From an uncultured archaeon (GTDB lineage: Archaea > Thermoplasmatota > Penumbrarchaeia > JASLWR01), in NCBI GenBank assembly GCA_964430885.1, contig CAYSHM010000033.1, forward strand, positions 1 through 27,136: a stretch of DNA of 27,136 nucleotides, read 5' to 3'. The position numbers and the translations under genes were made by a program. This document shows, one piece after another, positions 8,789-26,169 of the stretch. The notes under the pieces are model-generated. The model was not told the DNA's origin, searched no databases, and saw only the letters and a program-made list of their open reading frames with translations. How positions within the stretch are numbered: position 1 is the stretch's first letter; every line of letters begins with the position of its first letter.

Positions 8789-9187
8789 ATGGTGGAAGAA
8801 GAAGATAATAACGGCCCCTGGAGAGGCCAAGGAAGGGGCAGGGGAGGTGGCAGAGGAAAGGGGAGAGGGAGAGGATGCCGAGGGAGAGGACGGGGCAGGA
8901 GATGGATAACATCCCTTCCGGAATCTGATTATTACAGACCGAGAGGAGTTCATCCCGAAATGATGAAAGTAGAGGTTTTAAAACTGGAGGAGCTGGAGGC
9001 CATAAGGCTGGTGGATTTTGAAGGTATGAACCAGGAAGAAGCTGCAGCTCAGATGGGCGTTTCCAGAAAGACCATGTGGAACGATCTGAAAGCCGGCCGA
9101 ATGAAGGTGGCTTCAGCATTGATCCACGGCAAAGCAATAAGGATAGAGGGCGGAAGCTACGTGATCAGGGACGAGGAAAATAAATGA
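8789..9187 (+). CDS. DUF134 (UPF0251) HTH DNA-binding protein with an Arg/Gly-rich N-terminal extension
   Basis: 'LKLEELEAIRLVDFEGMNQEEAAAQMGVSRKT....LK.GR.KVA.ALIHGKAIRIEGG' is the DUF134 signature. In-frame ATGs at 8768, 8777 and 8789. Confidence 0.9.
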   Translation: MVEEEDNNGPWRGQGRGRGGGRGKGRGRGCRGRGRGRRWITSLPESDYYRPRGVHPEMMKVEVLKLEELEAIRLVDFEGMNQEEAAAQMGVSRKTMWNDLKAGRMKVASALIHGKAIRIEGGSYVIRDEENK

Positions 9188-9208
9188 TGAAATTTTAGGA
9201 GGGTAAAA

Positions 9209-9772
9209 TTGAAGATTGCAATTAGCTCCAAGGGTAGATTGATGGAGTCGGAAATGGACAATGCTATGGGCAGATGTCCTTTTTTTGCAGTACTGGATAC
9301 TCAAGATGGGGACGTTTTATTCCATGCCAATCCGGGAATAAATGAGCAGGGTGGAGCAGGAATAAAAGCTGCTGAATTTCTGATAAATCTAGGTATTGAT
9401 CATATCATTACTGGAAGCGTAGGGCCAAATGCTCGACCTCTCCTTAAAAGGAACAACATATCAATAATAAACCGATTTGGAGGGAAAATTGGCGAGATAA
9501 TTTCCGAGTTAAATGAAACCAATTCTCCGATGAGCAACCTCCCTTCAACAGTAAAAGTAAACCCGGAGACCAATACTCCACCAATTGGAGCTTCCAATAC
9601 ATTGAAAGAAGATGACAATGGAAACAAACACTCAAAAGGCCAAAGGGGCCCTCGCGGCTACTGCTACTGCCGGGGATGCGGAAGAATAACCGCGAATGAT
9701 GGAGGGGGGCCGTGCTATTCCCTCAAATGCCCCAATTGCGGCCTGATAATGGAAAGAAAATGGGAATTCTAA
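9209..9772 (+). CDS. NifB/NifX-family (COG1433) protein with a C-terminal six-Cys zinc-finger-like domain
   Basis: MKIAISS.G......GRCPFF...NP.....GGAGI.AA....IITGSVGPNA, then C-terminal GPRGYCYCRGC...PC...KCPNCG..MER. TTG start preceded by AGGAGGG. Confidence 0.88.
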   Translation: MKIAISSKGRLMESEMDNAMGRCPFFAVLDTQDGDVLFHANPGINEQGGAGIKAAEFLINLGIDHIITGSVGPNARPLLKRNNISIINRFGGKIGEIISELNETNSPMSNLPSTVKVNPETNTPPIGASNTLKEDDNGNKHSKGQRGPRGYCYCRGCGRITANDGGGPCYSLKCPNCGLIMERKWEF

Positions 9773-9862
9773 AATTCAGAAGGGTGTTCATATTCCATTT
9801 TATCATTAATCAATTCTGAATAATTCTTTGGAAAAATAACCATGATACATCAAGGTAATGAA

Positions 9863-9979
9863 ATGAAAGAAGCAGATGTAGTAGTTGTCGGAGGAAGCGC
9901 TGCGGGTATCCCTGCTGCAATAACTGCAAGAAGGCACTACCCACAAAAGAACATAATGCTGATAAGAAAAGAACAATAG
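9863..9979 (+). pseudogene. Truncated remnant (38 codons) of an FAD-dependent pyridine nucleotide-disulfide oxidoreductase (NADH oxidase/CoA-disulfide reductase-like)
   Basis: Manual translation gives MKEADVVVVGGSAAGIPAAITARRHYPQKNIMLIRKEQ*, an FAD-binding GxxxxG beta-alpha-beta start ended by TAG at 9977-9979. It is not in the ORF track. Confidence 0.8.
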
Positions 9980-10032
9980 ATTCTTAGCAAAACAATTCGT
10001 GTTAATTGATGAATAACATACTTGGTGTGTCA

Positions 10033-10608
10033 ATGAAAAAGATCCGTGAACTTATTGAAAGGAACCGATCCTATAGGCGGTTTGATGAAGCGCGTAAATT
10101 AACCAAAGATGTACTTTTACAGTTAATCGACAATGCTAGAATATCCTCCTCCGCTGCAAACCGGCAGCCTTTGAAATATATTATTAGCTGCACTGATGTT
10201 AAGAACAAATCAATATTCCCTTTCCTGAAATGGGCGGGTTATCTCAAGGATTGGAACGGGCCTGTGGAAGGTGAAAGACCTACTGCATACATAATCATGG
10301 TTCATGACAAGGAAATAGGAAATAATGTTTGGTGGGACCACGGGATCGCTGCTGAAAATATTCTATTGTCTGCTGTGGAGATGGGTCTGGGCGGATGCAT
10401 GTTAGGCGCCATAGATAAAAATGGTCTGAAAAAGGCATTGGGACTTGAAGAACAATATGAAGTGCTTATGGTTATTGCCCTTGGCAAACCCGCTGAAAAG
10501 GTTGTACTTGAAGAGATAGGGAACGATGGAGATATCAAGTATTACAGGGACGGCTCAGAGGTCCATCACGTACCTAAACGGTCCCTTGATGAGATAATTA
10601 TTGAATAG
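10033..10608 (+). CDS. Nitroreductase family protein
   Basis: RNRSYRRF, SSAANRQP, DHGIAAENILLSAVEMGLGGCMLG, IALGKP and HHVPKRSL. ATG 10033 follows GGTGTG; track start is 10006. Confidence 0.93.
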   Translation: MKKIRELIERNRSYRRFDEARKLTKDVLLQLIDNARISSSAANRQPLKYIISCTDVKNKSIFPFLKWAGYLKDWNGPVEGERPTAYIIMVHDKEIGNNVWWDHGIAAENILLSAVEMGLGGCMLGAIDKNGLKKALGLEEQYEVLMVIALGKPAEKVVLEEIGNDGDIKYYRDGSEVHHVPKRSLDEIIIE

Positions 10609-10634
10609 AGGATGAAATCCATTTTTCGAGACAT

Positions 10635-13600
10635 TCAATCCCAATCATCTTCGGCATCCAGGTCAATATTGAATTCGTCATCATCCCAATCCGATCCCTC
10701 AACCGAAACGGGGTCTTCAGGTTCCGGTTCTAGTTCCGGTTCTTGAGGGGCATCAGGATCCAATGAAATATCAACGGATCCATCCGTGGGTTCCCCGGGT
10801 TCTTCAATCGGTATGTCATCTTCGGAATCTCCGTCATCAATTTCATCACTTGCCGAGGCGCCTATCAACCCCTTATCCTCATCCACCGAGTCTGACTTGC
10901 CACCGTCTTCATCGGGGATTTCATTTTCGTCCTCTTCAGCATCCTTATCCGCTCCCTCCTCGGATTCATCTTCCTTGGATTCTTCTTCCTCTTCCTCTGG
11001 TTCACCATGGTCCTCTTCAGCATCCTCATCAAGTCCTGCAGCAGCTTCCATCTCCCCGCCGTCATCATCATCCTTCTTCTTTCTCCGCATTATAATAACT
11101 AGAAGAACAATGACCGCCAGCAGCACCACTACACCGATTATTATGTAGAGCAGGAAATCGTCGTCATCCCCCTCATCCTCAGACCCTGTTGTATTACCGT
11201 CATCATCACCTGCAGTATCATCGTCCCCGGTGGTGTCGTCATCTCCAGTGGTATCGTCGTCTCCGGTAGTGTCGTCGTCTCCAGTAGTATCATCATCATC
11301 GGTATCATCATCGTCAGGAGTATCATCATCGTCACCAATGTCATCATCACCTCCGCTGCCTGAATAATCCGAAACAACAATGGAAATATTGGCAATATTG
11401 TTCAGTTCATCGGTCTCCACGAGATCATCCCAAAAATCCGCAAGGACCATAACCGTATGAGTTCCCTTCACTCCGCTCCACATAAGCTCAACAGGGACGG
11501 ATGAGTCCCCGGATTCAACTGTTATGACCTGGGTTGTGATCGGTTCCTGGTCCACTACAAGACCGACGGTAACTAACCCCGCCTGATCCAATCCAGTGGA
11601 TTGAAGGGTGGCATTTATGGTGATCACATCGCTTTCCTGTGGTGAGGAGGGTGAGTGTCCGATATTGCCTATTGAAAAGTCCCCCGCAGTTGGGTAGATC
11701 GGGTCCTGCACCATAACAGAGATGAAACCGCCGTATATGTCGTAATGTTTGGAATTGTTCTGATCCGGCATGCCGTAAACCATATAGTAAAGCTGATCCA
11801 TTCCGCCAACGAACTGCATTTCGACCTTCTGACCTGAAACATCCATGCTTTTTCCCATTACTGCATCGGTCCAGACTCCGCCCTCCAGGGTCTGGGTCTT
11901 TAAAGCTGTCGTCCTGTTGATCTCCGAGGAATATGCAAGGATAATCTGGTCCTTGTCGTTCTTCTCAAGGGCAAGGCTCCTGACCACTACATCGCTTCCT
12001 GCGGACTCGGTCTCTATCCCGGTAATTGAACCGCCCTCCGTACTGAATGTACTGAAGTATATACCGTCCTGGTTGACACCTGCTTTCTTAGGGAGACCAT
12101 CCGGAAGAATTCCAACCCATGAAACAGCTGCATCATTGCCGGAAAGAAGTTTTGCCGATGGGGAGCATGAGTTTTTAGAATCCAGTTTCACTGCGCTGCT
12201 CCATCCTCCATCATGGAATGAAGTGGTGTATATCATGTTATTGGCAACATAGGCAAGGAGTACCCTTCCATTGTCGGCGTCCATATCAAAGGTCTGTGGA
12301 CCCTCTGCAACCCCTGGATTGGGAAGATTCTTCCAGCCTACCGATTCCGTTGTATAGGCCGCTACCCTGAAACGTGTATCCCCTGTTGTGGCGGGGTTCA
12401 TATCCCGGTCTTCCTTCCAGGCTAATATATATCTGCCTGCATTATCATATACCAGGCGCGGCTCGACCTCCTGATGATCATTATCAGTGATCCACTCTGG
12501 AGAGGACCATGTACCTGCATCCTTGTCATAAAAGCTGGAGCGAAGTTCCACCTTGGATGAGGCAAGGAATGGATTGCTTTCAGATGTAAGAGTGTTATCC
12601 TTGTAGGCTGCCCAGACCGCCATTGCATTACCCGACCGGTCATATGCAATTGTCGGGGCATAGGCGCTGTAGCCGTCAGACGATATCCAGGGCATCTTTT
12701 CCCAAGCAGCGTTCATTCCATCCCAGCCCAGGGAAGATATCCCTAAGCTTCCAGGTATTTCTTTAGCTGCATCATCCTCCACCATTATTATCTGAGCATT
12801 GCCGAACTGATCCACAGCAAGAGAAGGATTTGCCAGGGGGGAGGTTCCCTCCAGGAGTTTATCACCGCCCATTGTCCAGGTGAAATCCTGGCTGTTGAGC
12901 CAGGGCCGGTCGGTTATACCCGAGTTTCGGGTTACCCAGGGATGGGTTTCTGATTCCAGATACAGTGAACCCGACCTGCTGCTCCCCTTGGGTCTATTCT
13001 CGTAGAGCACGAAATCGAAGGTCTTTGAAGCACTGTCAGGTATGGTATACCAGCCGACGAATCCTTCAAGGAACAATTTCAATTTCAGACCCAGTTTTCT
13101 CAGATATGGCGACGGGAAACCCAGGGCACCGTTGACCCCCACCTCGTAGCCGACAGAGACCGAGCCCGCATAACCTTTCAGAAGATCCACATTGGTCTTC
13201 ACAATAAGACTGAATGAAAGACCCCCCTCCCCATCCTTCCAGCTGAAAGGTATACTTGGGAAGAAACTGTTTGATTTGGTGGCATCAATGACAGCCTTTA
13301 TCATGAGCTCGGCCTTGACCGCGACGGTCACGCTTACGTCCACAAGATAATCCAGTATCCATTTCAGGACCTTGCCGAGAACATAGCTGAGTCCCAGGGT
13401 CTTAGCGGCAAATATCTTTCCGAGATAGACCAGAAGCTCATTGAGGCCTACGGTCAATCCACCTGTCAGAGAGGTCTTGCCGTCTATGGATATGGTAGTG
13501 ACCTTGATATATTCACCATCGGGATCGTTAAGATCGTAGACCACGATCACATCTATGGCGAGTTCACCCTCGCCAGCAAGCTCGAAACCGACATCCATCT

Positions 13601-16600
13601 TTCCTGCCTTGGATTTTATCTCCGTCTCACCCATAGGGAAGGAGAACCCGTATTCAGCCGATCCTCCAGCCACCGCGCTGCCGCCGCTATCGAAATCGAT
13701 ATGGAACTCAAAACCGAAATTCAGACCGGTTGAAAGCTCCTTGGAATCTGTGAAACCCAGTACATTGGTCACAAGCTTTGTGGGATTGGCCTCCAGCCTG
13801 AACTCGTAGCCTACGGTGAAATTGTAGGTGACAAGATCATCCTGCACTGGTGTGCATTTTACCTTGCTCCACAGCTTGGTCTTGATAAGACTGTTATCTA
13901 TATCATGGGTCAATCCGTTCTTCTGAATGAAATTATCTATAGCCACCACCCAGCTGGGCCGCTCGATTATATGATACTCCGTATCGTGACCTGTGGTATT
14001 GGAATATCCGAACTTGGAAGTTGCCGTGACATTAAGAACATTAACATGAGGATGGGTTCTCAGATTATCCATTCTGAAGTCAGCCCACCAGGTGTCAGTA
14101 TTGCCGTCATATGTTCCCCTGACATTCTGGTTCCAGAAAGAGAAGGTAACCTTGATGACCGGATCGTCAGGATCCCCTGCCTGTACCTTTGCCGTGAACC
14201 TCTGGGTGAGCTTTATACCCTGGACAAACACATCACCTCTGTACTGAGCCTTGATCTCGGTGACGCTGGGGGGCGGAAGCTGCTTCATCTCAATAACTAT
14301 ATCCTTGGTAACTCCGGGAGTTATCTGGATATTCTTCACTTCCTTTGTGAAATAGGCATATTTCTTTGCATAAAGGGACCAGGTTCCCGGAGCTATATTA
14401 TTTATTCTGGCTGAACCATTGGAGTCGCTGACATCCTGAAACGGGTTGTTGGGATCTGCGGATACAGCTTCCTCCGGATTCTTGCTGGATGCCAGTATTA
14501 TTGATACATTGTCAAGTTTCTCCTTGGTTTCCTCATCCTGAACGGTGACAGATATATTGCAGGGATTTCCGTCCATCCAGTACATACTGTAAAACATGAT
14601 CCCCTCATCGGTTCCAACATCGTAATGGGTTGCAAACCCGTCCTTTGTGATGGTGCTTGAGGTCCATCCGTCATAGGCTATACACTCGAAATAGCCGTTC
14701 TCATTGGTGACTGTCTCGTTATTCCCGCCTCCTGCAGCAACGGTGAAATTGGCTCCCTGAAGGGCTCCGGAACTGGTACCTTCTGGATCATAGACCCTCT
14801 GCATGACATAACCCCACAGGAACACTCCTTCATTGGTGTCAGAATCCGATCCTCCGCCCAGATAATATGTGTATGTTCCGCCGGATGGACCTATCTGCAG
14901 TAGATCGTTCTTACCCGGCAGCCTAATTAGAGCCCATCCCGGAAGTGTTGTCAGGGTTGTAGTTCCACCAACCGTCATATTCCCAACATCCATTCCAATA
15001 TACTCGAACTGATTATCTATGGAAACCCAATCGTTCACCGGATCGTACTGTGCATCGTTCTCGTTCCATTCCCATAAATTGACCGTAACCTCCACAAAGT
15101 TCAGGGCAAGATCACCAAGCTGAACCTCCACCTCTCTCCAAAGAAGGGTTCCGTCCAGTTCAAATGTGTTCTCCCAGGGCTGAAAATGAGGATGTTCCAG
15201 CCTGATTGTGTGATTGCCTACAGGAATATCGTGCATGAAGAACTCGAAGTAGTTATCATGGTTCGGACTGTATGGTATGGGTGCGATCTGCTCTTTAATG
15301 ACATTCTGCCCATCCATTATCTTCACTGTCCAGGGAAGACTTTTCTGTGTGAGAAGAGCATATGAATCGAAATGTATCCTGACCTGTATCGACTCCACGA
15401 GATTGGGGTAGAAGACCTTTTCCATATCATTGATCTCCCCGGGTAGGAACCATAGGGTCTTGTCAAGATATCCAGGCACCTGGACCCGGATCAGGTAGTG
15501 TCCGATGGGCAGACCGGTGAGTATCAGGCGGCCGTCCTCAATTGGTATTGGGTCAGTTGGAAAAAGCTCGGATCCGTTCTTGTCCCACCAGTAATAATGG
15601 TCGAAGAACTCCATTGCATAGGCATCTAATATGGTTACCGTTCCATTGAGTGCTTCAACTTTGCAGTAGCCCCAATCCCTGTTCGCCTTGGCCAGGTAAA
15701 AATAGGATGTTGAATCCCGCAGCCTGGGTTCGGGGTGAAAATGAATATAGGTTCTCTTTCCGGCTTCCACCTTGACCATCTGTTCCTCCGGAAGAAGAAA
15801 ACCTCTCTGGTCCTGGTACCAATCCTCCCCTGTCGGCAGGGTCTGGTTGTTCTCCTCCCAGGCGCAGTAAAACCTTACCAGATAAACACCTGAGGGCACC
15901 GAGGACCACACTGCAGAATAATTGTGGCTGTTGAATAATAGGCCTGCATCGTTATCCTCCTCGCTCCATACGGCAGGTAACTTGATATCGTCCTGATTTC
16001 TGAAAACCACATTCATCGGCGCATCCTCGGGAATATCTACTGGGGCATGGACCTTGATCTCTACAGATCCCTTGGAAAGGTTAACCACTATCTTTCTCTG
16101 GATATCATCTCCCGGCGAGATGCTCTGGGACACGCTGACATTATTGAACTTGAAATGGTCGATAATAATATTGTAATCTCCAGGAGGAATGTTCACGAAC
16201 TTCACTATTCCTGAATCATCGGTCTCGTTTATATAAGGACCCAGTCCTCCGAACTCTGATTCACCCGATAAAGTGACGGAAAGGTTCTTGACCGGATGGG
16301 GGTTGTCCGCGTCCATATTGAACCAGCCGTTCCATACAACATTGATCTCAAGGGAGGAAGGGTAAGGTGTAAGAAGAAAATCCTGAAGTGTCAGTGAGTC
16401 CCCTTCGATTATGATATTGGATCTGTTGTCGGAATAGTACTCGGCAGCCGAGGCTGAACCTGAATAAGTGCCCGGATCCATATGGAGTATCTGGTAGAAA
16501 CCAGTGTCATTTGTTGTGGTATCCTGGATTCCGATTGTCACGGTGGCACCGACCATTGGGCCGCCTGTGAGAGCGTCACGAACGGTCCCCTGGACAAGGG

Positions 16601-17126
16601 TAGGCACCTTCTGGCCAGCGGTGGTAGGTGTGAGATTGAGCACCTGGTTGACGAATTCACCTTTGGCTACCTTGATTTTCACGGTCTCCTCCCCGTAGAA
16701 CTCCTTCTTCGCTCTTACCCAGTAATCACCTTCGGTGAGATGTGAGAAGGTAAAGAAGCCGAAGAAATCGCTGGTTGTCTGATTCTCAGGCGTATCCGGG
16801 AGAACCTGTTTGCCGTCCTTCTCCTCGGTTCTGTTGAATATTTCCACCTCTGCACCGTAAATGGGATTCTCGGTATTGTTCAGAAGCACAAAACCGCTCA
16901 AAAATGCATAGTATCCCAGGGCCCGGCTACCACCGTCCTCGGGTATTAGACCGTTTGATGCTGATGAGCCTGTACTTCTATTTTGGCCGCTACGGGCAAA
17001 TGAATCCATTATAACCCCGTTGAATGGAGTTATTAGGAACAATAATACGATCATAACAGGTCCTAGGACCTTCATTGATGGAGCGAAGCTCCTTAATTGA
17101 GAGAGATTACTTTCCAGGGACTTCAT
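10635..17126 (-). CDS. Very large (2163 aa) type-I membrane-anchored surface protein with carboxypeptidase-regulatory-like/Ig repeats, a beta-rich central region, a propeller-like region, a CARDB domain, an Asp-rich linker, a TM anchor and an acidic cytoplasmic tail
   Basis: N-terminal hydrophobic signal. Repeats such as 'GTVRDALTGGP..GATV...TTNDTGFY.I....PGTY'. CARDB end 'GTHTVMVLAD..D.LVETDELNN'. TM segment LYIIIGVVVLLAVIVLLVII followed by RRKKK, then a D/E-rich tail. RBS AGGTG upstream of ATG 17126. Confidence 0.9.
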   Translation of the reverse strand: MKSLESNLSQLRSFAPSMKVLGPVMIVLLFLITPFNGVIMDSFARSGQNRSTGSSASNGLIPEDGGSRALGYYAFLSGFVLLNNTENPIYGAEVEIFNRTEEKDGKQVLPDTPENQTTSDFFGFFTFSHLTEGDYWVRAKKEFYGEETVKIKVAKGEFVNQVLNLTPTTAGQKVPTLVQGTVRDALTGGPMVGATVTIGIQDTTTNDTGFYQILHMDPGTYSGSASAAEYYSDNRSNIIIEGDSLTLQDFLLTPYPSSLEINVVWNGWFNMDADNPHPVKNLSVTLSGESEFGGLGPYINETDDSGIVKFVNIPPGDYNIIIDHFKFNNVSVSQSISPGDDIQRKIVVNLSKGSVEIKVHAPVDIPEDAPMNVVFRNQDDIKLPAVWSEEDNDAGLLFNSHNYSAVWSSVPSGVYLVRFYCAWEENNQTLPTGEDWYQDQRGFLLPEEQMVKVEAGKRTYIHFHPEPRLRDSTSYFYLAKANRDWGYCKVEALNGTVTILDAYAMEFFDHYYWWDKNGSELFPTDPIPIEDGRLILTGLPIGHYLIRVQVPGYLDKTLWFLPGEINDMEKVFYPNLVESIQVRIHFDSYALLTQKSLPWTVKIMDGQNVIKEQIAPIPYSPNHDNYFEFFMHDIPVGNHTIRLEHPHFQPWENTFELDGTLLWREVEVQLGDLALNFVEVTVNLWEWNENDAQYDPVNDWVSIDNQFEYIGMDVGNMTVGGTTTLTTLPGWALIRLPGKNDLLQIGPSGGTYTYYLGGGSDSDTNEGVFLWGYVMQRVYDPEGTSSGALQGANFTVAAGGGNNETVTNENGYFECIAYDGWTSSTITKDGFATHYDVGTDEGIMFYSMYWMDGNPCNISVTVQDEETKEKLDNVSIILASSKNPEEAVSADPNNPFQDVSDSNGSARINNIAPGTWSLYAKKYAYFTKEVKNIQITPGVTKDIVIEMKQLPPPSVTEIKAQYRGDVFVQGIKLTQRFTAKVQAGDPDDPVIKVTFSFWNQNVRGTYDGNTDTWWADFRMDNLRTHPHVNVLNVTATSKFGYSNTTGHDTEYHIIERPSWVVAIDNFIQKNGLTHDIDNSLIKTKLWSKVKCTPVQDDLVTYNFTVGYEFRLEANPTKLVTNVLGFTDSKELSTGLNFGFEFHIDFDSGGSAVAGGSAEYGFSFPMGETEIKSKAGKMDVGFELAGEGELAIDVIVVYDLNDPDGEYIKVTTISIDGKTSLTGGLTVGLNELLVYLGKIFAAKTLGLSYVLGKVLKWILDYLVDVSVTVAVKAELMIKAVIDATKSNSFFPSIPFSWKDGEGGLSFSLIVKTNVDLLKGYAGSVSVGYEVGVNGALGFPSPYLRKLGLKLKLFLEGFVGWYTIPDSASKTFDFVLYENRPKGSSRSGSLYLESETHPWVTRNSGITDRPWLNSQDFTWTMGGDKLLEGTSPLANPSLAVDQFGNAQIIMVEDDAAKEIPGSLGISSLGWDGMNAAWEKMPWISSDGYSAYAPTIAYDRSGNAMAVWAAYKDNTLTSESNPFLASSKVELRSSFYDKDAGTWSSPEWITDNDHQEVEPRLVYDNAGRYILAWKEDRDMNPATTGDTRFRVAAYTTESVGWKNLPNPGVAEGPQTFDMDADNGRVLLAYVANNMIYTTSFHDGGWSSAVKLDSKNSCSPSAKLLSGNDAAVSWVGILPDGLPKKAGVNQDGIYFSTFSTEGGSITGIETESAGSDVVVRSLALEKNDKDQIILAYSSEINRTTALKTQTLEGGVWTDAVMGKSMDVSGQKVEMQFVGGMDQLYYMVYGMPDQNNSKHYDIYGGFISVMVQDPIYPTAGDFSIGNIGHSPSSPQESDVITINATLQSTGLDQAGLVTVGLVVDQEPITTQVITVESGDSSVPVELMWSGVKGTHTVMVLADFWDDLVETDELNNIANISIVVSDYSGSGGDDDIGDDDDTPDDDDTDDDDTTGDDDTTGDDDTTGDDDTTGDDDTAGDDDGNTTGSEDEGDDDDFLLYIIIGVVVLLAVIVLLVIIMRRKKKDDDDGGEMEAAAGLDEDAEEDHGEPEEEEEESKEDESEEGADKDAEEDENEIPDEDGGKSDSVDEDKGLIGASASDEIDDGDSEDDIPIEEPGEPTDGSVDISLDPDAPQEPELEPEPEDPVSVEGSDWDDDEFNIDLDAEDDWD
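11200..11352 (-). repeat. Coding tandem repeat (about 18-bp units) encoding GDDD(TT) in the juxtamembrane stalk
   Basis: Protein GDDDIGDDDDTPDDDDTDDDDTTGDDDTTGDDDTTGDDDTTGDDDTAGDDD. The DNA units differ at synonymous positions. Confidence 0.9.
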
Positions 17127-17292: not shown

Positions 17293-17856
17293 TCAAAAAT
17301 ACTTGTCTATTCCACCGTAGCCCACCATCTTGTTCTCACGGGTCTTCTTGATGAAGTTGTCAAGGCGTTTTCTGAACTCCTCGGGCCTTGCCCTCCCTAC
17401 ATTAATATAGGCTACCCTAATCCTTTTGTAAGGTTCTGAGAAATTATTATAATTCTCCCAGACACCCGGGTCTTTCCGAATCTCGTCAATGATATCATCC
17501 GGAAATACAAATTCTTCGTTAACCACATCCCTTACCGCATCCGCCAATGAAGGATGAACCATATTTTGGTCCAAGAGCCACCTGAGCCTCTCCTTGTTGG
17601 GCTGGGAATATGAGCTCCTCTTTCTTCTGGGAGTATATCTTTGGGCCGAGCTTTCTGGATCATACTTCTTTATTGTGCTGTCTATCCACCCGAAGCATAG
17701 GGCCTCCTCCACCGCATCATTGTAGGGTATCCGGTTCTTGCTGGAAGCCTTGTGAGGATTGATCAGCCAGATCTCCTTTTTATCGCGGAAGTTCTCAGAA
17801 AGCCATTTTCTCCACTCTTTCCGGTCTGAAAAATATACTGTTTCAGTTATCTCCAT
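17293..17856 (-). CDS. YdeI/OmpD-associated family protein (annotated 'bacteriocin protection'; function uncertain)
   Basis: WRKWL..N....EIWL, Y.DAVEEALCFGWIDS, QRYTPRR..S.YS..NK.R and RPEEF.KRL. ATG 17856 is preceded by GGTGA and overlaps the upstream gene's stop at 17843. Confidence 0.9.
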   Translation of the reverse strand: MEITETVYFSDRKEWRKWLSENFRDKKEIWLINPHKASSKNRIPYNDAVEEALCFGWIDSTIKKYDPESSAQRYTPRRKRSSYSQPNKERLRWLLDQNMVHPSLADAVRDVVNEEFVFPDDIIDEIRKDPGVWENYNNFSEPYKRIRVAYINVGRARPEEFRKRLDNFIKKTRENKMVGYGGIDKYF

Positions 17857-20800
17857 ATCCATCACCGAACTCCTTCATTAGATATTCACCTGTGTAGCTG
17901 CCTTCAGATCCCATTACCTGCTCGGGAGTTCCAATGGCTACAATTCTACCTCCTTCGATCCCGCCCTCTGGACCCATATCGATTACCCAGTCTGCGGAGT
18001 GTATGACATCCAGATTGTGCTCTATCACAATAACGGTGTTTCCAGCTTCCTTCAACCTGTGAAGTATCTTCAGAAGATTCTCGATATCGGCAAAATGCAG
18101 ACCGGTGGTAGGTTCATCAAGTATGTACATTGTCCTGCCTGTGTCACCCTTGCTCAGCTCCCTGGCCAGCTTGATCCTCTGGGCCTCGCCGCCGCTTAAG
18201 GTGACAGCGCTCTGACCCAGTTTGATATAGCCCATACCCACATCGAGGAGGGTCCCCAGGATTCGCTCTATATTTTTCTTGCCTTTGAAAAAATCAACTG
18301 CTTCCCCTACGTCCATATCAAGGACATCGGATATGGTTCTTTCATTATATCGGATATCAAGTGTACGGGGATTGAAGCGCTTGCCTCCGCATTCGGAACA
18401 GGTAACCCATATATCGGGCATAAAATTCATCTTGATCCTTTTCTTTCCGTAGCCATCGCATGCAGGGCACTGCCCGTCCTTGGAATTGAAACTGAAATAC
18501 GATACGGAATATTTTTTCTCCTTTGCAGCATTGGTGGATGCGAAGAGCTTTCGAACCTCATCAAACACCCCGGTGTAGGTGGCGGGATTGGACCGTGGAT
18601 TCCTGCCGATGGGTGATTGGTCCATCAATATTATCCTATCGATGTTCTCAGCACCGGTGAGCTCTTCACAAAGTTCGCGGTCATAACGCCCGTCTGACAG
18701 AAGACCCGATAAAGTAGGCAGCAGTGTCTGTATCACCAGACTGCTCTTTCCCGAACCGCTCACCCCGGTTACGCAGGTCAGCACTCCAATGGGAATATCC
18801 ACACTGAGTCCTTCTATATTATTGACATTAACGCTCTTGAGAGAGATCCATTTTTCAGGCTGCTTTCGAGACTCCGAGCCCTTGGTGGTGATATGCCTTT
18901 TACCGCTTAGGAATTGTCCTGTAATTGAGTCATCATCCGTCATAACCTCCGGTGGTGTGCCGTAAGATATTATCTCACCGCCAAGAGATCCTGCGCCCGG
19001 ACCTATATCGATGAGCAGGTCAGCACTTCTCATGGTTTCGGCATCATGCTCCACAACCACAACGGTATTCCCCCTGTCCCGGAGGGTAAGAAGTGAATCC
19101 AACAGGGCCCTGTTATCCCTGGGATGGAGACCGATAGAGGGTTCATCAAGGACATAGACAAGTCCGTTGAGGTCGTTACCCAGCTGGGATGCAAGACGCA
19201 ATCGCTGGACCTCTCCCCCCGATAGGGTAGGCATGGACCGGGATAGACTCAGGTAATGGAGCCCTACCTTCAAGAGGGCGCGGGTTCTCTCCAGGGACTC
19301 TTTTATTATGCCCTCACCTATCACGGAAACTGAGGGTTCCAGAAAATCTGAAAGTCTATTGAGCCAATGGTGCAGGTCTGCAATTGTCATGGATGAGATT
19401 TCCGGGAACCTTTTGTCATGGACCTTCACGAATCGCGGTTCCGGCGCCAGACCCTCGCCTCGGCATTCAGGGCATTCTTTTTGGCTCGTATATATCAGAA
19501 GCCGTTTACGGCTTTCGGGCGAGCTTGTCTGATGCAGAAGACGCTCGATATTGGTAACTGCACCCTGGGCGGAACGCTGGAAACCAATGGTTCTGCCCCT
19601 TGTCTTCATATCGTAGCTCCACTCGAGTATCTCTTCACCGGTGCCGTAGAGAACCTTCTTTTTAAAATCCTCCGGAAGTCTGTTCCAGGGGATCTCAAGG
19701 TCTATACCGAATATGTCGGCCATTGCGAACAGCTCAGCCCTCATCCAGTTTCCAGTGGGTTTGACCTTCCTGAGTACACCGAACCATTGAGAAGCTCCGT
19801 CAAGCAGAGACAGATCCGGTTTGTCTATCACCTTGGCAATATCCACCTCATGACGTTGGCCCCGGCCTTCACAGTGGGTGCACATACCCTCCGGATTGTT
19901 TGTATTGAACATTGTGGGAGTCATTTCGAAGAAGAATCTTCTACAATAGGGGCAAGCGTTCCTCCTGCAGAACCGATATTCCCGGCCATCCATGGACACT
20001 GATAGATAACCATTACCTCTATCATAAGCATCTTTCAAAGCTGCAATTAAATCTATCTTGATCTTTTCCCTGCCGCTGCTATCTCCTGCAGGAACGTCAA
20101 ACTGTACCAGGCCCTGGCTATTGTCATTTACATTGGAACTTGCCTGATGGTCCGGTCCTGAAAGGGTACTTATTGACACCTCGGTGCCTGGAGTAGATGA
20201 TAATATCAACTCGACCAGCTCTCCCGGGCTTTGGGGTTCTACAGCCCTGGCACAGCCGGGGCAGTATCGAGTTCCCACTTTGGAAAAGAGCACTCTCATG
20301 AGGCTGTACATATCGGTTACTGATCCGACCGAAGAGCGGGGATTTCTGGCAGTGGTCCTCTGTTCGATCGCAACAGTGGGCAGCAGACCATTTATCTGGT
20401 CAACATCAGGCTCTTCCATTTGATCCGCAAGCTGACGGGCAGAGGTGGACATGCTCTTAACGAACCTGTAGTGCCCTTCTGCATAGAGTGTATCAAAAGC
20501 CAGGGATGATTTACCGCTGCCGCTGACCCCTGTTATCACCGTCAGTTTATTGTGCGGGATGCTCACATCGATATTTTTTAGATTGTTCTGTCTAGCGCCT
20601 ATAATTGTAATTGAATCGGCCCGTTTTTCCAGCGAGACATCAGCTTTTTCCAATTTGAGCGAAACCTCAGGCCTTTTGCTGCCGATAGGTTCCGCAGCAT
20701 CTATACCATCACCCAAATTTGATAAATCATTGAAAAGTATTCGCCGCCGGTCCGATGAACGCAGAATGTTAGGGTCTGCAGTACTGGCTGTTTCATCATC

Positions 20801-21706
20801 CATCATGTAAGGGGGCCAATGCCTGAACCAGTCTGGAACCCTGAAATCTCCAGCCCGGTCCAGTTGCGGAATGTATGGAACGATGTCAAGGATGGGCGTT
20901 CCGGAAAATGCATCGAAGCCTTTTATCTCCAGGGTGCCCTCATCAGCATCGATCTTTTCAACCTTCACAGTGGTCAGGCCCAGGGGATTCGGGCGCACGG
21001 GGGAGCGGGTGGAGAAAACACCGGTTCGGGGGGCGTTCTCATAAGGAGGGTTTACCTGAAGGGTCCTTCTGAACCTGCTGCTATCCAGCCGGTGGAACCA
21101 CCAGATTATCCTGACATGGGAATAACCGGATAGTTTACCGAGGGACCCAATAAAGGATCCATCAACCCTTACTATTATTTTGTTCTTGATCTTCTTAGTG
21201 ATCCCTAGAGGGCAAACCTCGTTTTCCAATAATTTCGGAATTGAAATATATTCATTGGCTTCAAGATTCATAACATCTTTATCCTCTCTTAATCCGGGTA
21301 TGTAGTCCATTGTATATGTTCCATCATCCGGAACATCCGCTTCCTTCACCCTGTCCGATACCGGAATGTGCGCCTTAATATCCAGAATGACTGCATCATC
21401 AGGTAGGTTCTCTGATTGAAATGATATCAATCCCTTCTTCATATCCGACTTATAGATGGAAATCGTTGAGATATTTATCAATCCAGATCTATCATGGACA
21501 TCTCCCGGAATGATACCACGGTAGCAGCCCCTTACTTCTGAACCGGCAGCACCAACTTTCATTCTCCAGAGAACTATAAGATGACTGAACATACCACAGT
21601 TCTTCATGGCCTTGACATACTTGGGAAATATCTTGATGAAACCCAGTCCTTTACTGGATCTCACAGCCCCTATCTGTCTCAGTAAAAATTTTTCCATATC
21701 TATCAT
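17843..21706 (-). CDS. uvrA: Fusion protein: two N-terminal TrmO/TsaA (YaeB-like, SAM-binding beta-barrel) domains plus a UvrA-family ABC ATPase
   Basis: UvrA part (about 20612-17843): GARQNNLKNIDVSIP, two GVSGSGKSS Walker A motifs, two LSGGE signatures, VLDEPSIGLHPRD and ILDEPTTGLH, QSPIGRNPRSNPATYTG, and CxxC zinc modules. TrmO part: YSHVRIIWWFH, GVFSTRSPVRPNPLGLTTV and GFDAFSGTPILDIVPY, plus a degenerate first copy with FSHLIVLW and ILDIKAHIP..DRV. Confidence 0.92.
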   Translation of the reverse strand: MIDMEKFLLRQIGAVRSSKGLGFIKIFPKYVKAMKNCGMFSHLIVLWRMKVGAAGSEVRGCYRGIIPGDVHDRSGLINISTISIYKSDMKKGLISFQSENLPDDAVILDIKAHIPVSDRVKEADVPDDGTYTMDYIPGLREDKDVMNLEANEYISIPKLLENEVCPLGITKKIKNKIIVRVDGSFIGSLGKLSGYSHVRIIWWFHRLDSSRFRRTLQVNPPYENAPRTGVFSTRSPVRPNPLGLTTVKVEKIDADEGTLEIKGFDAFSGTPILDIVPYIPQLDRAGDFRVPDWFRHWPPYMMDDETASTADPNILRSSDRRRILFNDLSNLGDGIDAAEPIGSKRPEVSLKLEKADVSLEKRADSITIIGARQNNLKNIDVSIPHNKLTVITGVSGSGKSSLAFDTLYAEGHYRFVKSMSTSARQLADQMEEPDVDQINGLLPTVAIEQRTTARNPRSSVGSVTDMYSLMRVLFSKVGTRYCPGCARAVEPQSPGELVELILSSTPGTEVSISTLSGPDHQASSNVNDNSQGLVQFDVPAGDSSGREKIKIDLIAALKDAYDRGNGYLSVSMDGREYRFCRRNACPYCRRFFFEMTPTMFNTNNPEGMCTHCEGRGQRHEVDIAKVIDKPDLSLLDGASQWFGVLRKVKPTGNWMRAELFAMADIFGIDLEIPWNRLPEDFKKKVLYGTGEEILEWSYDMKTRGRTIGFQRSAQGAVTNIERLLHQTSSPESRKRLLIYTSQKECPECRGEGLAPEPRFVKVHDKRFPEISSMTIADLHHWLNRLSDFLEPSVSVIGEGIIKESLERTRALLKVGLHYLSLSRSMPTLSGGEVQRLRLASQLGNDLNGLVYVLDEPSIGLHPRDNRALLDSLLTLRDRGNTVVVVEHDAETMRSADLLIDIGPGAGSLGGEIISYGTPPEVMTDDDSITGQFLSGKRHITTKGSESRKQPEKWISLKSVNVNNIEGLSVDIPIGVLTCVTGVSGSGKSSLVIQTLLPTLSGLLSDGRYDRELCEELTGAENIDRIILMDQSPIGRNPRSNPATYTGVFDEVRKLFASTNAAKEKKYSVSYFSFNSKDGQCPACDGYGKKRIKMNFMPDIWVTCSECGGKRFNPRTLDIRYNERTISDVLDMDVGEAVDFFKGKKNIERILGTLLDVGMGYIKLGQSAVTLSGGEAQRIKLARELSKGDTGRTMYILDEPTTGLHFADIENLLKILHRLKEAGNTVIVIEHNLDVIHSADWVIDMGPEGGIEGGRIVAIGTPEQVMGSEGSYTGEYLMKEFGDGYGDN

Positions 21707-21715
21707 CCTGGCCTC

Positions 21716-23206
21716 TCAATGATGTGAATGTCCATGTCCATGGCCTCCGCTTCCCTCATGGGGATCGGGTATACCCGGTACATGACCCAGCTGGTGACCC
21801 AGCATATGGTGATAATCCTCTATTGACATGAGATTGCCGCCTGCTCTCTCCACCACCTCTGATAGAGCAGGATGGATATGCATACCGTCCACCACAGGTA
21901 CCAGAGAACCCTCTTTAGTGTACATCAGATTGATTATTTCCTGTATAAGGACCGAGGCCTGGGGACCTATGATGTGAGCCCCGAGTATCTTCATCCCATG
22001 CCTTGCGGCGATGATCTTCACGAAACAGTCCTTCAAGCCCATTGCGCTTCCCTTTGCCGTATCCTCAAACCTCTGGAAACCTATGAGCACACCATCAAGA
22101 CCGTATTCTACAAGCGCTTCTGCCTCTCCCATGCCCACTCCGGCTATCTCCGGGTGAGTGAACACAGCATGGGGAACAGCGTGGTAATCCGCCTTCCTAT
22201 GGGCATTTCCGAATGCATTGTAGTAGACAACGGCCGCCTCGTGATTGGCAGCATGCTTGAAAAGATGCTTGCCCGTTGCGTCGCCGAAAGCCCATATATT
22301 GGGCATTGAGGTCTCCATTTTTTCATTGACCTTTATCCATCCTCTTTTATCTGTATCAATACCTGAATTCTCTGGTTTCAGAAGGGCGGTATTGGGCGCC
22401 CTGCTGGAGGCCACAAGGATCGCATCGGCGGTGACGGACTCGAGCTTGCCTGTGCCCTTATGGTCCGCTATTACCTTTATTCGGCCGTCCTTTGATCTCT
22501 CCACGCGCGTTACCTCGTGTTGGGTGAAGATCCTCATCTGCTTCTTCATCTTGTACAGCGCAACAGCTGATATTTCGGGTTCCTCCTGTTTCAGGAACTG
22601 GGTATTGCGGCCGATTATGGTGACCTTCGAGCCCATTGATGATAAAAAATGTCCATATTCGGCACCTATGTAGCCTCCTCCGATGATGACTACGGACCTG
22701 GGCAGTTCATTCAGTCCCAGGATAGTATCGCTGGTTAGATAATCTACTCCAGCCAGACCCATTATGGGCGGTATGAATATCTCCGATCCGGTACAGAGAA
22801 GGATCTTTTCGCCCTTTATCTTCTTACCGTTGACCTTTAGGACATAGGGTTCAACGAACTCAGCCGGATAAGGATAATAATCAAGGTTCCGGGCATGGGT
22901 AAGCCCTCTTCTGATATTCTCGATATCGGGGTTGATATGATCACGCATTCGATCCATTACTGCCTTGAAATCAATATTATCGATCTTTGCCTTGATACCG
23001 AATCGGTCTGCGCTATCTATTGTCCTTACAACGTCCGCAGGATAGAGGAGCATCTTGGACGGTATGCAGCCCCTTGTCAGGCATATACCACCTGGCTGGT
23101 CCTTCTCGATGACTGCTATCTTCAAATTCGGGTTCCTGCTCATAACAGCGCTGATAATGCTCATTGCAGAACCGGTACCCACAGCTATAATATCGTATCT
23201 TTTCAT
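21716..23206 (-). CDS. Class-I pyridine nucleotide-disulfide oxidoreductase (dihydrolipoamide dehydrogenase/mycothione reductase-like) with a His-rich C-terminal tail
   Basis: Redox motif GGICLTRGCIPSK, NAD(P) motif GGGYIGAE, TSMPNIWAFGD, FKHAANHEA, catalytic HIHPALSE and tail HEGSGGHGHGHSHH. Confidence 0.9.
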   Translation of the reverse strand: MKRYDIIAVGTGSAMSIISAVMSRNPNLKIAVIEKDQPGGICLTRGCIPSKMLLYPADVVRTIDSADRFGIKAKIDNIDFKAVMDRMRDHINPDIENIRRGLTHARNLDYYPYPAEFVEPYVLKVNGKKIKGEKILLCTGSEIFIPPIMGLAGVDYLTSDTILGLNELPRSVVIIGGGYIGAEYGHFLSSMGSKVTIIGRNTQFLKQEEPEISAVALYKMKKQMRIFTQHEVTRVERSKDGRIKVIADHKGTGKLESVTADAILVASSRAPNTALLKPENSGIDTDKRGWIKVNEKMETSMPNIWAFGDATGKHLFKHAANHEAAVVYYNAFGNAHRKADYHAVPHAVFTHPEIAGVGMGEAEALVEYGLDGVLIGFQRFEDTAKGSAMGLKDCFVKIIAARHGMKILGAHIIGPQASVLIQEIINLMYTKEGSLVPVVDGMHIHPALSEVVERAGGNLMSIEDYHHMLGHQLGHVPGIPDPHEGSGGHGHGHSHH

Positions 23207-24354: not shown

Positions 24355-26169
24355 ATGATAAGTATTGCAATAGCCAGCGGGAAAGGTGGTACTGGGAAGA
24401 CATTTGTAGCGACCAATATCGCCCGGACCCTGGAAAACATGGGGCGCCGGATCACCTATCTTGACTGCGATGTTGAGGAACCCAATGGACACCTTTTCCT
24501 CAGGCCTGACATCTCTAAAGAAACAGATATCGAGATATTGTCCCCCCTAGGTGTTGATAATGAAAAATGCATAGGATGCGGAAAATGCGCACGCGCATGC
24601 AACTACAATGCCATTGCTATGATTCGAAGCAAAGTAATTTTCTTCCCCGAGCTTTGCCATATATGCGGAGCGTGCAGCCTGGTATGCCCTGCCGATGCTA
24701 TTGTGGAAGGCAATAAGCGTATTGGCACAATTAATGAAGGACATGCAGGAAATATTGATTTCACCTACGCGGAACTTGAAACTGGGGAGGGAGGAATGTC
24801 CCCCAGGCTAATTCAGAGGGTCAAACAGAACCTTGGGGAGGGCATCAATATCTTGGACTGTCCCCCCGGAACCGCCTGCCCAGCGGTGGAAAGCATAATA
24901 GGTGCAGACCTAGTGGTGCTTATTACCGACCCCACACCCTTCGGGGTCCACGACCTTAAACTTGCGGTCAACATGTGCAGAGAGATGAATATCGAACCCG
25001 TAGTTCTGGTGAACAGGGCGGATTATCTCAACCAGGATCTTAAGACCTACTGCAGGGAAGCGGAACTGAAAATAATAGGTGAGATCCCGGACGACAGGAA
25101 AGTAGCTGAGCTTTATTCCGATGGCGGGCTGGTAGTGGACCAGAATGATGAATACAAAGCTATGTTCCTCAAGCTTGCAGAAATACTGATCAAGGAAGCT
25201 TCCCAAACGAGGGCGGTAAAGGCAGCTGTTGATCTGGAATACTCAGGGAGTGAATTTGAGGCTAAGGAGCTTAGACCTACCCCTATCAAAGGAAGGATGG
25301 GCAGTAAAAGCGAACTTGTGATCATTAGTGGCAAAGGGGGTACGGGAAAGACTTCATTGGCCGCCTGTTTTGCAGCGCTAGACGATAAACCCGTCATAGC
25401 GGATTGCGATGTGGATGCGGCGGATATGCATCTAATAACCCAGCCCCTAACAAGGGAAAAAGGCATCTTCACTGGTGGTGTCACCGCCAGGATAGATACC
25501 AACAAATGTACCAAATGCGGAATATGTAAGAATGAATGCAGGTTCGGTGCTGTGGATATTCTGGATGGTCATTACCGCATAGACCCTTTTAAATGCGAGG
25601 GATGCGGTGTGTGCAAGATCGTATGCCAGGAAGGTGCAATTATTACAGAAAAGGCACGAAATGGCGAATGGTATATCTCCGATACCCGCCTAGGACCAAT
25701 GGCCCATGCAAGACTGGGATTGGCAGAGGAGAACACAGGGAGACTTGTAAGTCTGGTCAGGGAAAAGGCCCAGGGACTGGAAGCAAAGGGAAAACTTATA
25801 GTGATAGACGGCGCACCGGGGACAGGATGTCCCGTAATAGCATCGCTGACGGGCTCTACCTATGCAGTTGTTGTCACCGAACCCACTGTCTCGGGTATTC
25901 ACGATATGAAACGGGTGATGAAAGTGGCTGAGCATTTTGGAATAAGAGGCGGAGTTATTGTGAACAAATGCGACCTGAATCCGAAAAACACCCATAAAAT
26001 TTGGAAGATCGCTGATGAAATGGGATTTTCCTTCCTTGGGGAAATACCTTATGACGGCTCCTTTACCGAGGCTCAGATGGAAGGTAAATCCTTGGTTGAG
26101 CACCAAAAGGGACCGACCACAAATAAGATACGCGAAATTTGGCATGAACTGAAAAAGGAGATTTATTAG
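24355..26169 (+). CDS. Tandem fusion of two MinD-superfamily P-loop ATPases, each with an inserted 2x[4Fe-4S] ferredoxin domain (COG1149-like)
   Basis: Two copies of SGKGGTGKT, DCDV(E/D), CxxCxxCxxxC pairs, D.(P/A)PGT.CP and T(D/E)PT..G.HD in one 604-aa ORF. Confidence 0.92.
   Translation: MISIAIASGKGGTGKTFVATNIARTLENMGRRITYLDCDVEEPNGHLFLRPDISKETDIEILSPLGVDNEKCIGCGKCARACNYNAIAMIRSKVIFFPELCHICGACSLVCPADAIVEGNKRIGTINEGHAGNIDFTYAELETGEGGMSPRLIQRVKQNLGEGINILDCPPGTACPAVESIIGADLVVLITDPTPFGVHDLKLAVNMCREMNIEPVVLVNRADYLNQDLKTYCREAELKIIGEIPDDRKVAELYSDGGLVVDQNDEYKAMFLKLAEILIKEASQTRAVKAAVDLEYSGSEFEAKELRPTPIKGRMGSKSELVIISGKGGTGKTSLAACFAALDDKPVIADCDVDAADMHLITQPLTREKGIFTGGVTARIDTNKCTKCGICKNECRFGAVDILDGHYRIDPFKCEGCGVCKIVCQEGAIITEKARNGEWYISDTRLGPMAHARLGLAEENTGRLVSLVREKAQGLEAKGKLIVIDGAPGTGCPVIASLTGSTYAVVVTEPTVSGIHDMKRVMKVAEHFGIRGGVIVNKCDLNPKNTHKIWKIADEMGFSFLGEIPYDGSFTEAQMEGKSLVEHQKGPTTNKIREIWHELKKEIY

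Follow-up and report, generated by a model that had tools for sequence, protein, structure and literature searches.

A UvrA paralogue fused to two TrmO-like units, with a single predicted cofactor pocket, in an uncultured archaeon and in many bacteria

The contig CAYSHM010000033.1 of assembly GCA_964430885.1, from an uncultured archaeon (Thermoplasmatota; Penumbrarchaeia; JASLWR01), was analysed over positions 1 to 27,136 (in nucleotides, nt), here called the window. Positions 17843-21706 of its reverse strand hold a single open reading frame (ORF) of 1287 amino acids (aa), in which two units resembling the methyltransferase TrmO are followed by a linker and a UvrA module. That this frame is uninterrupted had been proposed in an original prediction made from the sequence, and it is indeed free of stops. 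The gene is an accessory UvrA paralogue in which the ATPase, zinc and DNA-binding elements are all kept and the UvrB-binding domain is trimmed. It is well supported, by conservation and by structure models, that the two TrmO-like units pair within the chain as a pseudo-dimer that has one composite pocket for a cofactor. The explanation of the whole that we tentatively favour, at a little below even probability, is that the protein belongs to a xenobiotic or genotoxin response, and would bring a step dependent on S-adenosylmethionine (SAM, or AdoMet) to distorted DNA.

Pfam identifies TrmO_N twice in the protein, together with the UvrA DNA-binding domain and two ATP-binding cassette (ABC) modules. 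NCBIfam places it in the UvrA family TIGR00630 (1050.9 bits; cut-off 729.8), and its TrmO model scores 108 bits on the whole protein (cut-off 93.25). The second TrmO-like unit is a clear match, both to TrmO_N (97.8 bits; aa 175-283, nt 20858-21184) and to TIGR00104 (94.2 bits; cut-off 93.25). The match to the first is weaker, at 25.8 bits (E 1.3e-5; aa 19-118, nt 21353-21652), which lies below the cut-off of 26.8 bits; it is a genuine TrmO unit, because relatives show an intact GVFxxRxPxRPNP at the same position. The hidden Markov models thus agree with the original prediction that there are two such units.

The motifs quoted in that prediction are all present in the translation, at coordinates that were right to within a few codons. 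Unit 2 has GVFSTRSPVRPNP at 229-241, GTPILDIVPY, NPPYE at 219-223 and a conserved tail, VPDWFRHWP. Unit 1 has FSHLIVLW and ILDIK, and retains FSH, G92, D109 and K111. It has lost RSPxRPN, as had been noticed: the Arg and the RPNP are gone, and Lys111 of ILDIK is kept. Both units fall in a subfamily of short TrmO-like proteins with the tail DRV..VP.W..HWP, of which stand-alone genes also exist. Pfam found no TrmO_C domain in the fusion protein, and no other TrmO_N domain in the host genome.

The roles of these residues can be compared with those in the TrmO-family protein AF0241 of A. fulgidus. According to PMC4132733, the amino group of AdoMet is held by Gln22 and Asp111, and its carboxylate by Arg82 and Lys122, of which Lys122 comes from the partner subunit of the homodimer; the same paper reports that R92A and K136A of E. 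coli TrmO, at the equivalents of Arg82 and Lys122, abolish the formation of N6-methyl-N6-threonylcarbamoyladenosine (m6t6A). Equivalent residues were assigned from a HMMER alignment of unit 2 to 2nv4_A together with these contacts. In that alignment Arg82 corresponds to the first Arg of TRSPxRPNP, Asp111 to the first Asp of LDALDG, and Lys122 to the Lys of IDIK. Three of the AdoMet contacts of AF0241 are thus matched in the fusion, by R234 (for R82) and D265 (for D111) in unit 2 and by K111 in unit 1. The reciprocal site is lost: in unit 1 the equivalents of R82 and of RPNP are missing, and the position of the trans Lys in unit 2 holds Val276.

The same asymmetry is found across the family, represented here by 107 members that are less than 90% identical pairwise. 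In unit 2 the R82-equivalent Arg is present in 107 of 107 members, the D111 position is Asp or Glu in 107 of 107, and RPNP is exact in 102. The trans Lys of unit 1 is present in 106; the sole miss, L095, has an N-terminus that was trimmed by the choice of frame. Unit 1 has its own pocket intact in only 21 of the 107, and unit 2 keeps its Lys in 27, with 17 other residues found at that position. The two losses go together, in that the unit 2 Lys is kept in 19 of the 21 members that keep the unit 1 pocket, and lost in 78 of the 86 that do not. Near the pocket P221, Y222, G229, F231, R238 and N240 are invariant. The NPPYE motif (window 21038-21052, reverse strand) is also strongly conserved, with P220 in 104 members, P221 and Y222 in 107 and E223 in 101, and the residue before PPYE is Asn or Asp in 66. 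This motif resembles the (D/N)PPY motif of amino-group methyltransferases, a likeness offered as a lead only. The asymmetry of conservation is what would be expected of two barrels that pack as in a TrmO dimer, with selection acting on one composite pocket only.

Structure predictions are consistent with such packing. An AlphaFold2 (AF2) model of aa 1-369 has a mean predicted local distance difference test score (pLDDT) of 82.8 and a predicted template modelling score (pTM) of 0.82, and all ten of its fold matches in the PDB (Foldseek, E<=0.001) are TrmO/YaeB structures; for 2nv4_A the E value is 1.2e-7 and the target-normalised TM-score (TMt) 0.78. When unit 1 (aa 1-150) and unit 2 (aa 151-312) were modelled as two chains with SAM, the interaction prediction score from aligned errors (ipSAE) was 0.90, 0.91 and 0.90 in three runs, and 0.00 in the best of three controls. 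As a benchmark, this level is reached by 58 of 80 solved complexes and by 2 of 110 mismatched pairs. The runs share at least 90% of their contacts, with a partner pLDDT of at least 84. Residues 108-111 of unit 1 meet residues 231 and 240-242 of unit 2 in the models, and K111 and D109 touch F231 and N240. Conservation in the 107 members and the two-chain model both support the idea, put forward in the original prediction, of a pseudo-dimer with one live SAM site. They argue well for a division of labour in which unit 1 would be reduced to a scaffold that gives Lys111 in trans, and unit 2 would supply the pocket (R234, D265, RPNP and PPYE).

In the UvrA module a motif scan finds the Walker A, LSGGE signature, Walker B and H-loop motifs in two copies each, and six CxxC pairs. 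Its best sequence matches in the PDB are to class I UvrA (9gxk, 842 bits; 2r6f, 839 bits), followed by UvrA2 of D. radiodurans (2vf7, 630 bits) and Ecm16 (7sh1, 486 bits). An AlphaFold model of aa 353-1287 (pLDDT 86.7, pTM 0.78) gives the same order in Foldseek, with query-normalised TM-scores (TMq) of 0.89 for 3uwx_A, 0.87 for 2r6f_A, 0.69 for 2vf7 and 0.62 for 7sh1. The module had been described as a complete two-ABC-module UvrA, which is right as regards both ABC modules; it is not complete, because the UvrB-binding domain is trimmed.

The evidence for this trimming is as follows. TIGR00630 positions 149-210 have no counterpart in the fused UvrA, and in the alignment it lacks about 30 residues at the place of the UvrB-binding core of the canonical UvrA and of the relatives P0038 and P0046. 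The CxxC pairs of zinc module 1 are 103 aa apart, versus 130 and 133 in two canonical archaeal UvrAs. PF17760 (UvrA_inter) has no match in the fused UvrA at E<=1, versus 96.7 bits in the canonical UvrA of the same genome and 67.1 in P0038. The spacing in zinc module 1 is 70-99 aa in 84 of the 107 members, in which the UvrB-binding core is thus deleted; it reaches at least 130 aa in only 11, of which 10 belong to the clade that retains both TrmO pockets. The fusions in all five complete bacterial genomes tested also lack about positions 146-208 of TIGR00630. Coupling of the fused UvrA to UvrB is, on these alignments and models, doubtful, and is graded no lower because what remains of the domain still folds in the model, with a loop (model segment 167-179, protein 519-531) at pLDDT <50.

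The fusion is not the only UvrA of its host. The genome (3.13 Mb in 44 contigs, 91.6% complete) is that of an archaeon by its small-subunit ribosomal RNA, for which the archaeal model is the best of its clan (1503.7 bits); McrA was not found in it. Canonical uvrB (993.9 bits), uvrA and uvrC (550.4 bits) lie consecutively on another contig, C16, and this uvrA is a 942-aa frame matching model positions 1-924 at 1401.7 bits. The fusion is therefore a second UvrA. A canonical UvrA accompanies the fusion in all seven genomes checked, namely the host, its relative G002 and five of five complete bacterial genomes. Further UvrA paralogues were seen in some of the bacteria: in G062, G063 and G064 there are short ones, in frames of 772-817 aa without the N-terminal quarter of the model, and G063 and G065 each have another near-full-length copy (1121 and 1168 bits).

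This is not a rare architecture. Three contigs from four public sources are recorded as encoding this exact 1287-aa protein, and the combination of TrmO_N and UvrA in 1239-1363 aa occurs in 21 of the best 120 homologues. A HMMER search with the N-terminal 369 aa against 1.84 billion cluster representatives gave 5891 matches at E<=1e-3; among the best 150 of these are 22 proteins, 999-1288 aa long, in which a UvrA Walker A motif lies about 310-400 residues from the start. One genome per prokaryotic species was also scanned. A single N-terminal sequence, used as the query against genome contigs, gave no loci, and an alignment of N-terminal sequences gave 242 confirmed loci, of which the best 80 underlie the counts per locus given below. 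In 72 of the 80, several of them from complete genomes, a single frame stays open for 1000 aa or more and includes two Walker A motifs. By phylum label these 72 are Bacillota (51), Thermotogota (5), Spirochaetota (3), Thermodesulfobacteriota, Chloroflexota and Bacteroidota (2 each), and Chlorobiota, Moduliflexota, Acidobacteriota and Cloacimonadota (1 each), with 3 unplaced. Besides one related archaeon, the fusion is thus known from no fewer than 10 bacterial phyla, and it is widespread across Bacillota, where it is common in Clostridia. Cultured carriers include Clostridium, Robinsoniella, Eisenbergiella, Enterococcus, Natronincola and Petrotoga. The search for the same architecture in other genomes, suggested with the original prediction, was in this way productive. 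An alignment-based scan of metagenome contigs gave two irrelevant ABC matches. Carriage on plasmids was considered and rejected: 81 PLSDB records match single TrmO units only, and none covers 80% or more of the tandem.

The remaining eight of the 80 loci lack the full frame. Three are stand-alone units of about 170 aa (L094, L115 and L116), two are cut by a contig end (L097 and L107), and three have shorter frames (L042, L046 and L053). In L046, from Clostridium sporogenes, the family gene is present as two ORFs (7038-11690 of the locus, downstream of a MerR/GyrI-like regulator): a 335-aa tandem-TrmO ORF (8001-9008), a gap of 141 nt, and an 846-aa UvrA-like ORF without the first Walker A (9150-11690). 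The split may be natural, or it may reflect a broken gene or an error of sequencing. One protein, P0225 (921 aa), has the reversed order, with a short UvrA-like ATPase followed by a single C-terminal TrmO_N (aa 782-889, 95.5 bits) and no match to UvrA_DNA-bind; this reversal adds to the case that TrmO_N and UvrA modules work together. The separate halves in L046 are what favours a reading of the archaeal gene as an assembly chimera, or a read-through of two genes. Such an artefact is excluded for practical purposes, because there is no stop in the frame, the identical protein is on three contigs from four sources, and 72 of the 80 loci are fused, complete genomes included; we give it negligible probability.

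Within its own class the gene is scarce, being present in only two of 37 genomes, the host and G002, which are of the same family; 31 of 60 relatives searched have stand-alone TrmO-like genes only, in frames of 134-279 aa. A FastTree phylogeny of the UvrA parts of the 107 non-redundant members, rooted on two archaeal canonical UvrAs, groups the window protein with P0002 and with P0004 of G002 (support 99). This trio is nested in a clade of eight (support 100) with Chlorobiota and Desulfobacterales sequences, and the next group outward is a Chloroflexota/Moduliflexota clade. The placement in the tree and the patchy distribution point to a bacterial origin, so that the archaeal fusion was probably acquired from bacteria by horizontal transfer; the direction is put no higher than likely because the rooting rests on two outgroup rows.

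The gene context in bacteria suggests that the family belongs to a xenobiotic or genotoxin response. Neighbours were called crudely, by greedy choice among the longest ORFs of at least 90 aa, and an upstream ORF was obtained for 68 of the 72 full loci. A GyrI-like domain is present in 42 of these 68 immediate upstream genes, 22 with MerR and 18 with AraC helix-turn-helix domains, and with few exceptions these regulators share the strand of the fusion and lie no more than about 100 nt from it. GyrI-like regulators such as BmrR, Rob and SbmC sense drugs, many of them DNA-binding, and typically drive multidrug responses. In those 42 bacterial loci the fusion resembles the BmrR- and Rob-type regulons in lying directly downstream of such a regulator, and differs from them in that the controlled gene is a DNA-scanning ATPase with a SAM-type domain and not an efflux pump. 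ABC ATPases recur near the fusion in 12 bacterial loci. An FPG/Nei-like DNA glycosylase with H2TH and zinc finger was seen one or two genes upstream in L081, L082, L084 and L092, three of which are Thermotogota. The interpretation offered originally had the pseudo-dimer and missed the second UvrA beside uvrBAC, the wide spread and the GyrI-like regulators.

By this context, MerR or AraC regulators with drug-binding GyrI-like domains would switch the fusion on in bacteria. A mechanism may be sketched as speculation. The UvrA dimer might use ATP to find distorted, adducted or drug-loaded DNA, and the flexibly tethered TrmO pseudo-dimer might carry out a SAM-dependent step at the site that UvrA has found. 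Methyl transfer to an adduct, to a bound compound or to an exposed base is a candidate for that step, and the usual hand-off to UvrB would be largely or wholly bypassed. The tether is the linker between unit 2 and UvrA, which AF2 predicts to be disordered (pLDDT <50 at 330-369) with a helix at 317-325. A semi-conserved L-x-x-S/A-D-x-E/D-R-L (aa 315-325; window 20732-20764, reverse strand) was noted in this short helix of the otherwise disordered linker, and it may be a docking element.

The known systems that the fusion most resembles help to place it. It shares with TrmO/TsaA/YaeB, the class VIII AdoMet methyltransferases (E. coli TrmO; AF0241; PDB 2NV4), the β-barrel fold, the RSPxRPNP and D...DIK motifs and, by sequence, an AdoMet pocket completed by a Lys of the partner barrel. 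Unlike the TrmO homodimer it has two barrels on one chain with one composite pocket, no C-terminal DPRxxY domain and no identifiable Gln22 loop, and it has the DRV..VP.W..HWP tail, an invariant PPYE (in its P221 and Y222) and an attached UvrA. Like class I UvrA (B. stearothermophilus; PDB 2R6F and 3UWX) it has two full ABC modules, three CxxC...CxxC zinc modules and the DNA-binding insertion domain, with 839-842 bits and TMq 0.87-0.89. Unlike class I it has a UvrB-binding domain about 30 aa shorter, in which PF17760 is undetectable, and a 365-aa N-terminal extension; it lies outside the uvrBAC operon and is never the sole UvrA in the genomes checked.

With the class II UvrA-like proteins (Ecm16, PDB 7SH1; DrrC; D. 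radiodurans UvrA2, PDB 2VF7) the fusion shares its status as an extra paralogue, an apparently impaired coupling to UvrB and, for the bacterial members, a drug-response context. According to PMC9328131, Ecm16 gives resistance to DNA intercalators through its ATPase, without nucleotide excision repair (NER), and a class IIa UvrA is by definition one without zinc finger 1 and with no UvrB-binding domain at all. The fusion, unlike class IIa, keeps C482/C485, C585/C588 and a remnant of the UvrB-binding domain. Membership of class II was accordingly considered and rejected, since zinc module 1 and the domain remnant are kept, and both sequence and fold are nearer to class I. The TrmO domains set it apart from the class II proteins seen here, with the reversed P0225 as the single exception.

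Several observations weigh against the favoured reading. The joint loss of the unit 1 pocket and the unit 2 Lys (2x2 table 19/2/8/78, Fisher 7e-13) reflects only three changes of state on the tree, or two to three independent pairs, so that the Fisher value cannot be read as a probability; the pseudo-dimer argument relies on the asymmetry of conservation and not on this value. The two-chain score may show likeness and not be an independent test, because TrmO homodimers have already been solved. The Gln22 contact (E. coli Gln25) could not be placed: the Pfam matches cover the model only from position 14-16 onward, the 2nv4_A alignment starts at chain residue 37, no conserved Gln was found in the corresponding region of the subfamily, and the subfamily is shorter by about 10-15 N-terminal residues. 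About 10 of the 107 members keep the full UvrB-binding domain, and in the window protein zinc module 1 and a folded remnant of that domain of about 100 aa persist in the AF2 model. The UvrA module is nearer to class I (842 bits) than to the class II drug-resistance UvrAs (630 and 486 bits). Finally, the crude gene calls give something other than a GyrI-like gene upstream in 26 of the 68 bacterial cases, and no GyrI-like regulator is found in the window or in the neighbourhood of the G002 fusion.

Some of these points would suit other explanations. The TrmO pseudo-dimer might be a ligand-sensing switch. On binding SAM, S-adenosylhomocysteine or a different small molecule, perhaps even the xenobiotic, it would allosterically control the ATPase or the DNA binding of UvrA, with no transfer. 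The conserved residues are indeed binding ones and not proven catalytic, no Gln22 loop is seen, the protein can do without one of its two sites, the N-terminal module is on a disordered tether, and the small-molecule-sensing regulators nearby imply that ligands matter in the system. However, the six invariant residues around the pocket (P221, Y222, G229, F231, R238 and N240) exceed the need of a clamp for carboxylate and amino groups, and a disordered 40-aa tether is a poor allosteric coupler. We know of no TrmO-family member that acts as a sensor, and to our knowledge the family would, if the domain were a sensor only, be the first ligand-gated UvrA. We hold the switch to be improbable, though a rival of some substance. 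A more conventional role would be in NER, as a back-up or specialised sensor that hands over to UvrB weakly or in another way, with the N-terminal domains as an appendage for structure or recruitment that has no SAM chemistry. This fits a UvrA module that is class I-like in sequence and fold, the persistence of zinc module 1 and of a folded UvrB-binding remnant (with the full PF17760 in some members), the XPD-like helicase, NurA and HerA beside the G002 fusion, and the FPG-like glycosylases upstream at four loci. It is made quite unlikely by the canonical UvrA in seven of seven genomes, by the deletion of the UvrB-binding core in 84 of 107 members, and by SAM-pocket residues that do not vary among 107 members spanning more than 10 phyla, a constancy for which a simple appendage would have no need.

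The least surprising assignment of the domains would be two ordinary functions on one chain, m6t6A37 methylation of tRNA and normal NER, and it is true that unit 2 passes TIGR00104 and the UvrA passes TIGR00630. The tRNA function cited in the original prediction is nevertheless unlikely to apply, because the C-terminal DPRxxY domain needed by E. coli TrmO is absent; a motif scan found DPRxxY in none of the 107 members. PMC4132733 states that this motif is necessary for m6t6A in E. coli and absent from archaeal homologues, that m6t6A was undetected in archaeal tRNAs, and that archaeal YaeB proteins may have other targets. Since the UvrA is moreover a trimmed paralogue beside a canonical copy, in a context of drug sensors, the two-function reading appears very improbable; the fusion is unlikely to be a tRNA m6t6A enzyme. 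The preferred reading, a UvrA paralogue that would bring a SAM-dependent step to distorted DNA, remains the leading one, still just short of an even chance. It has a more specific form, a UvrA-guided detoxifier, in which the ATP-driven damage sensor would deliver a single-site TrmO-type enzyme to a DNA lesion or a DNA-bound genotoxin, and the enzyme would methylate that target in place, neutralising or releasing it without excision; in this form we consider it unlikely.

The features of the gene and its two closest neighbours are collected in Table 1. The fusion is probably co-transcribed with both of them. The fusion of G002 has other neighbours (an ABC_ATPase/MRB1590 protein, an XPD-like helicase, NurA and HerA), and the window and G002 share no neighbourhood.

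Table 1. Coordinates in the window of the fusion gene, its parts and the adjoining genes
Feature	Position	Strand	Evidence
Flavoprotein disulfide reductase (dihydrolipoyl dehydrogenase type), upstream, 9-nt gap	21716..23206	-	Pyr_redox_2 and Pyr_redox_dim; NF004947 709.6 bits (cut-off 592)
TrmO_N(degenerate)-TrmO_N-linker-UvrA fusion gene, 1287 aa plus stop	17843..21706	-	ORF, Pfam, NCBIfam
TrmO unit 1, aa 1-125	21332..21706	-	Pfam match aa 19-118; column analysis; AF2 pLDDT mostly >90
Lys111 codon (unit 1), equivalent of AF0241 Lys122	21374..21376	-	2nv4_A alignment; modelled contacts 111-231 and 109-240
Inter-unit connector, aa 126-160, part at low confidence	21227..21331	-	AF2 pLDDT 64-88 (blocks 121 to 160)
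TrmO unit 2, aa 161-300, pocket intact	20807..21226	-	Pfam, TIGR00104, conservation
Linker, aa 301-365 (~65 aa)	20612..20806	-	AF2; column counts
UvrA module, aa 366-1287: two ABC ATPase modules, three zinc modules, DNA-binding insertion domain	17846..20611	-	TIGR00630, PDB match, AF2/Foldseek, motifs
Walker A of ATPase module I, GVSGSGKS, aa 393-400	20507..20530	-	Motif scan
Zinc module 1, C482/C485 ... C585/C588, around trimmed UvrB-binding domain	19943..20263	-	Spacing, alignment gap, profile searches
UvrA DNA-binding (insertion) domain, aa 622-736	19499..19843	-	PF17755 70.2 bits
Walker A of ATPase module II, GVSGSGKS, aa 981-988	18743..18766	-	Motif scan
YdeI/OmdA-domain protein, 190 aa, downstream, 23-nt overlap with the end of the fusion	17293..17865	-	PF13376 OmdA 43.4 bits

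A role in anti-phage defence was considered and rejected, since PADLOC gives only a mad3 match of ATPase module II and weak P-loop matches, and no defence architecture is evident. The mad3 match itself may be recorded: module II (aa 958-1278; window 17870-18832, reverse strand) matches mad3 of the MADS system at 269.6 bits, other MADS components not having been searched for, and UvrA-like half-ATPases are used in MADS.

Elsewhere in the window a serpin of 428 aa (3098-4384, reverse strand; PF00079, 377.8 bits) is present in this archaeal genome. Two large proteins are encoded on the same strand: one of 2163 aa (10635-17126), in which five CarboxypepD_reg repeats and CARDB occur together with a probable membrane anchor at the C-terminus, and one of 1302 aa (4755-8663) in which a zinc ribbon near aa 1004 is the only recognised feature. 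The forward strand has a 437-aa fusion of an OMPdecase/HUMPS-type domain to an RraA-like domain (555-1868) and a 604-aa protein in which 4Fe-4S ferredoxin inserts accompany two CbiA/ParA-type P-loop domains (24355-26169).

The sequence family is not new, since proteins of this architecture have entries in public databases, where they are named 'excinuclease ABC subunit UvrA'. A functional study of the TrmO-UvrA fusion was not found in the main texts of open-access PubMed Central (PMC) and bioRxiv, which agrees with the original prediction that no characterisation was known. The same searches likewise gave no account of a pseudo-dimer with one pocket, of the trimming of the UvrB-binding domain or of an association with GyrI-like regulators.

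The fusion is thus a class of UvrA paralogue with a module of the class VIII methyltransferase type. UvrA paralogues are known as drug self-resistance factors, with a mode of action that is unclear; here a UvrA scanner is coupled to a conserved SAM-type pocket whose twin has decayed, and the bacterial copies are tied to drug-sensing regulators. If the UvrA-guided detoxifier is true, it would be a principle distinct from NER, from direct reversal and from drug displacement of the Ecm16/DrrC type, and would provide methyltransferases of the class VIII fold with their first DNA-linked substrate. Should the SAM step act on DNA-bound targets, the non-tRNA branch of the TrmO fold, in which the archaeal proteins lack a known substrate, would gain a function, and the fusion would be a new means by which anaerobes of the gut and the environment tolerate genotoxins.

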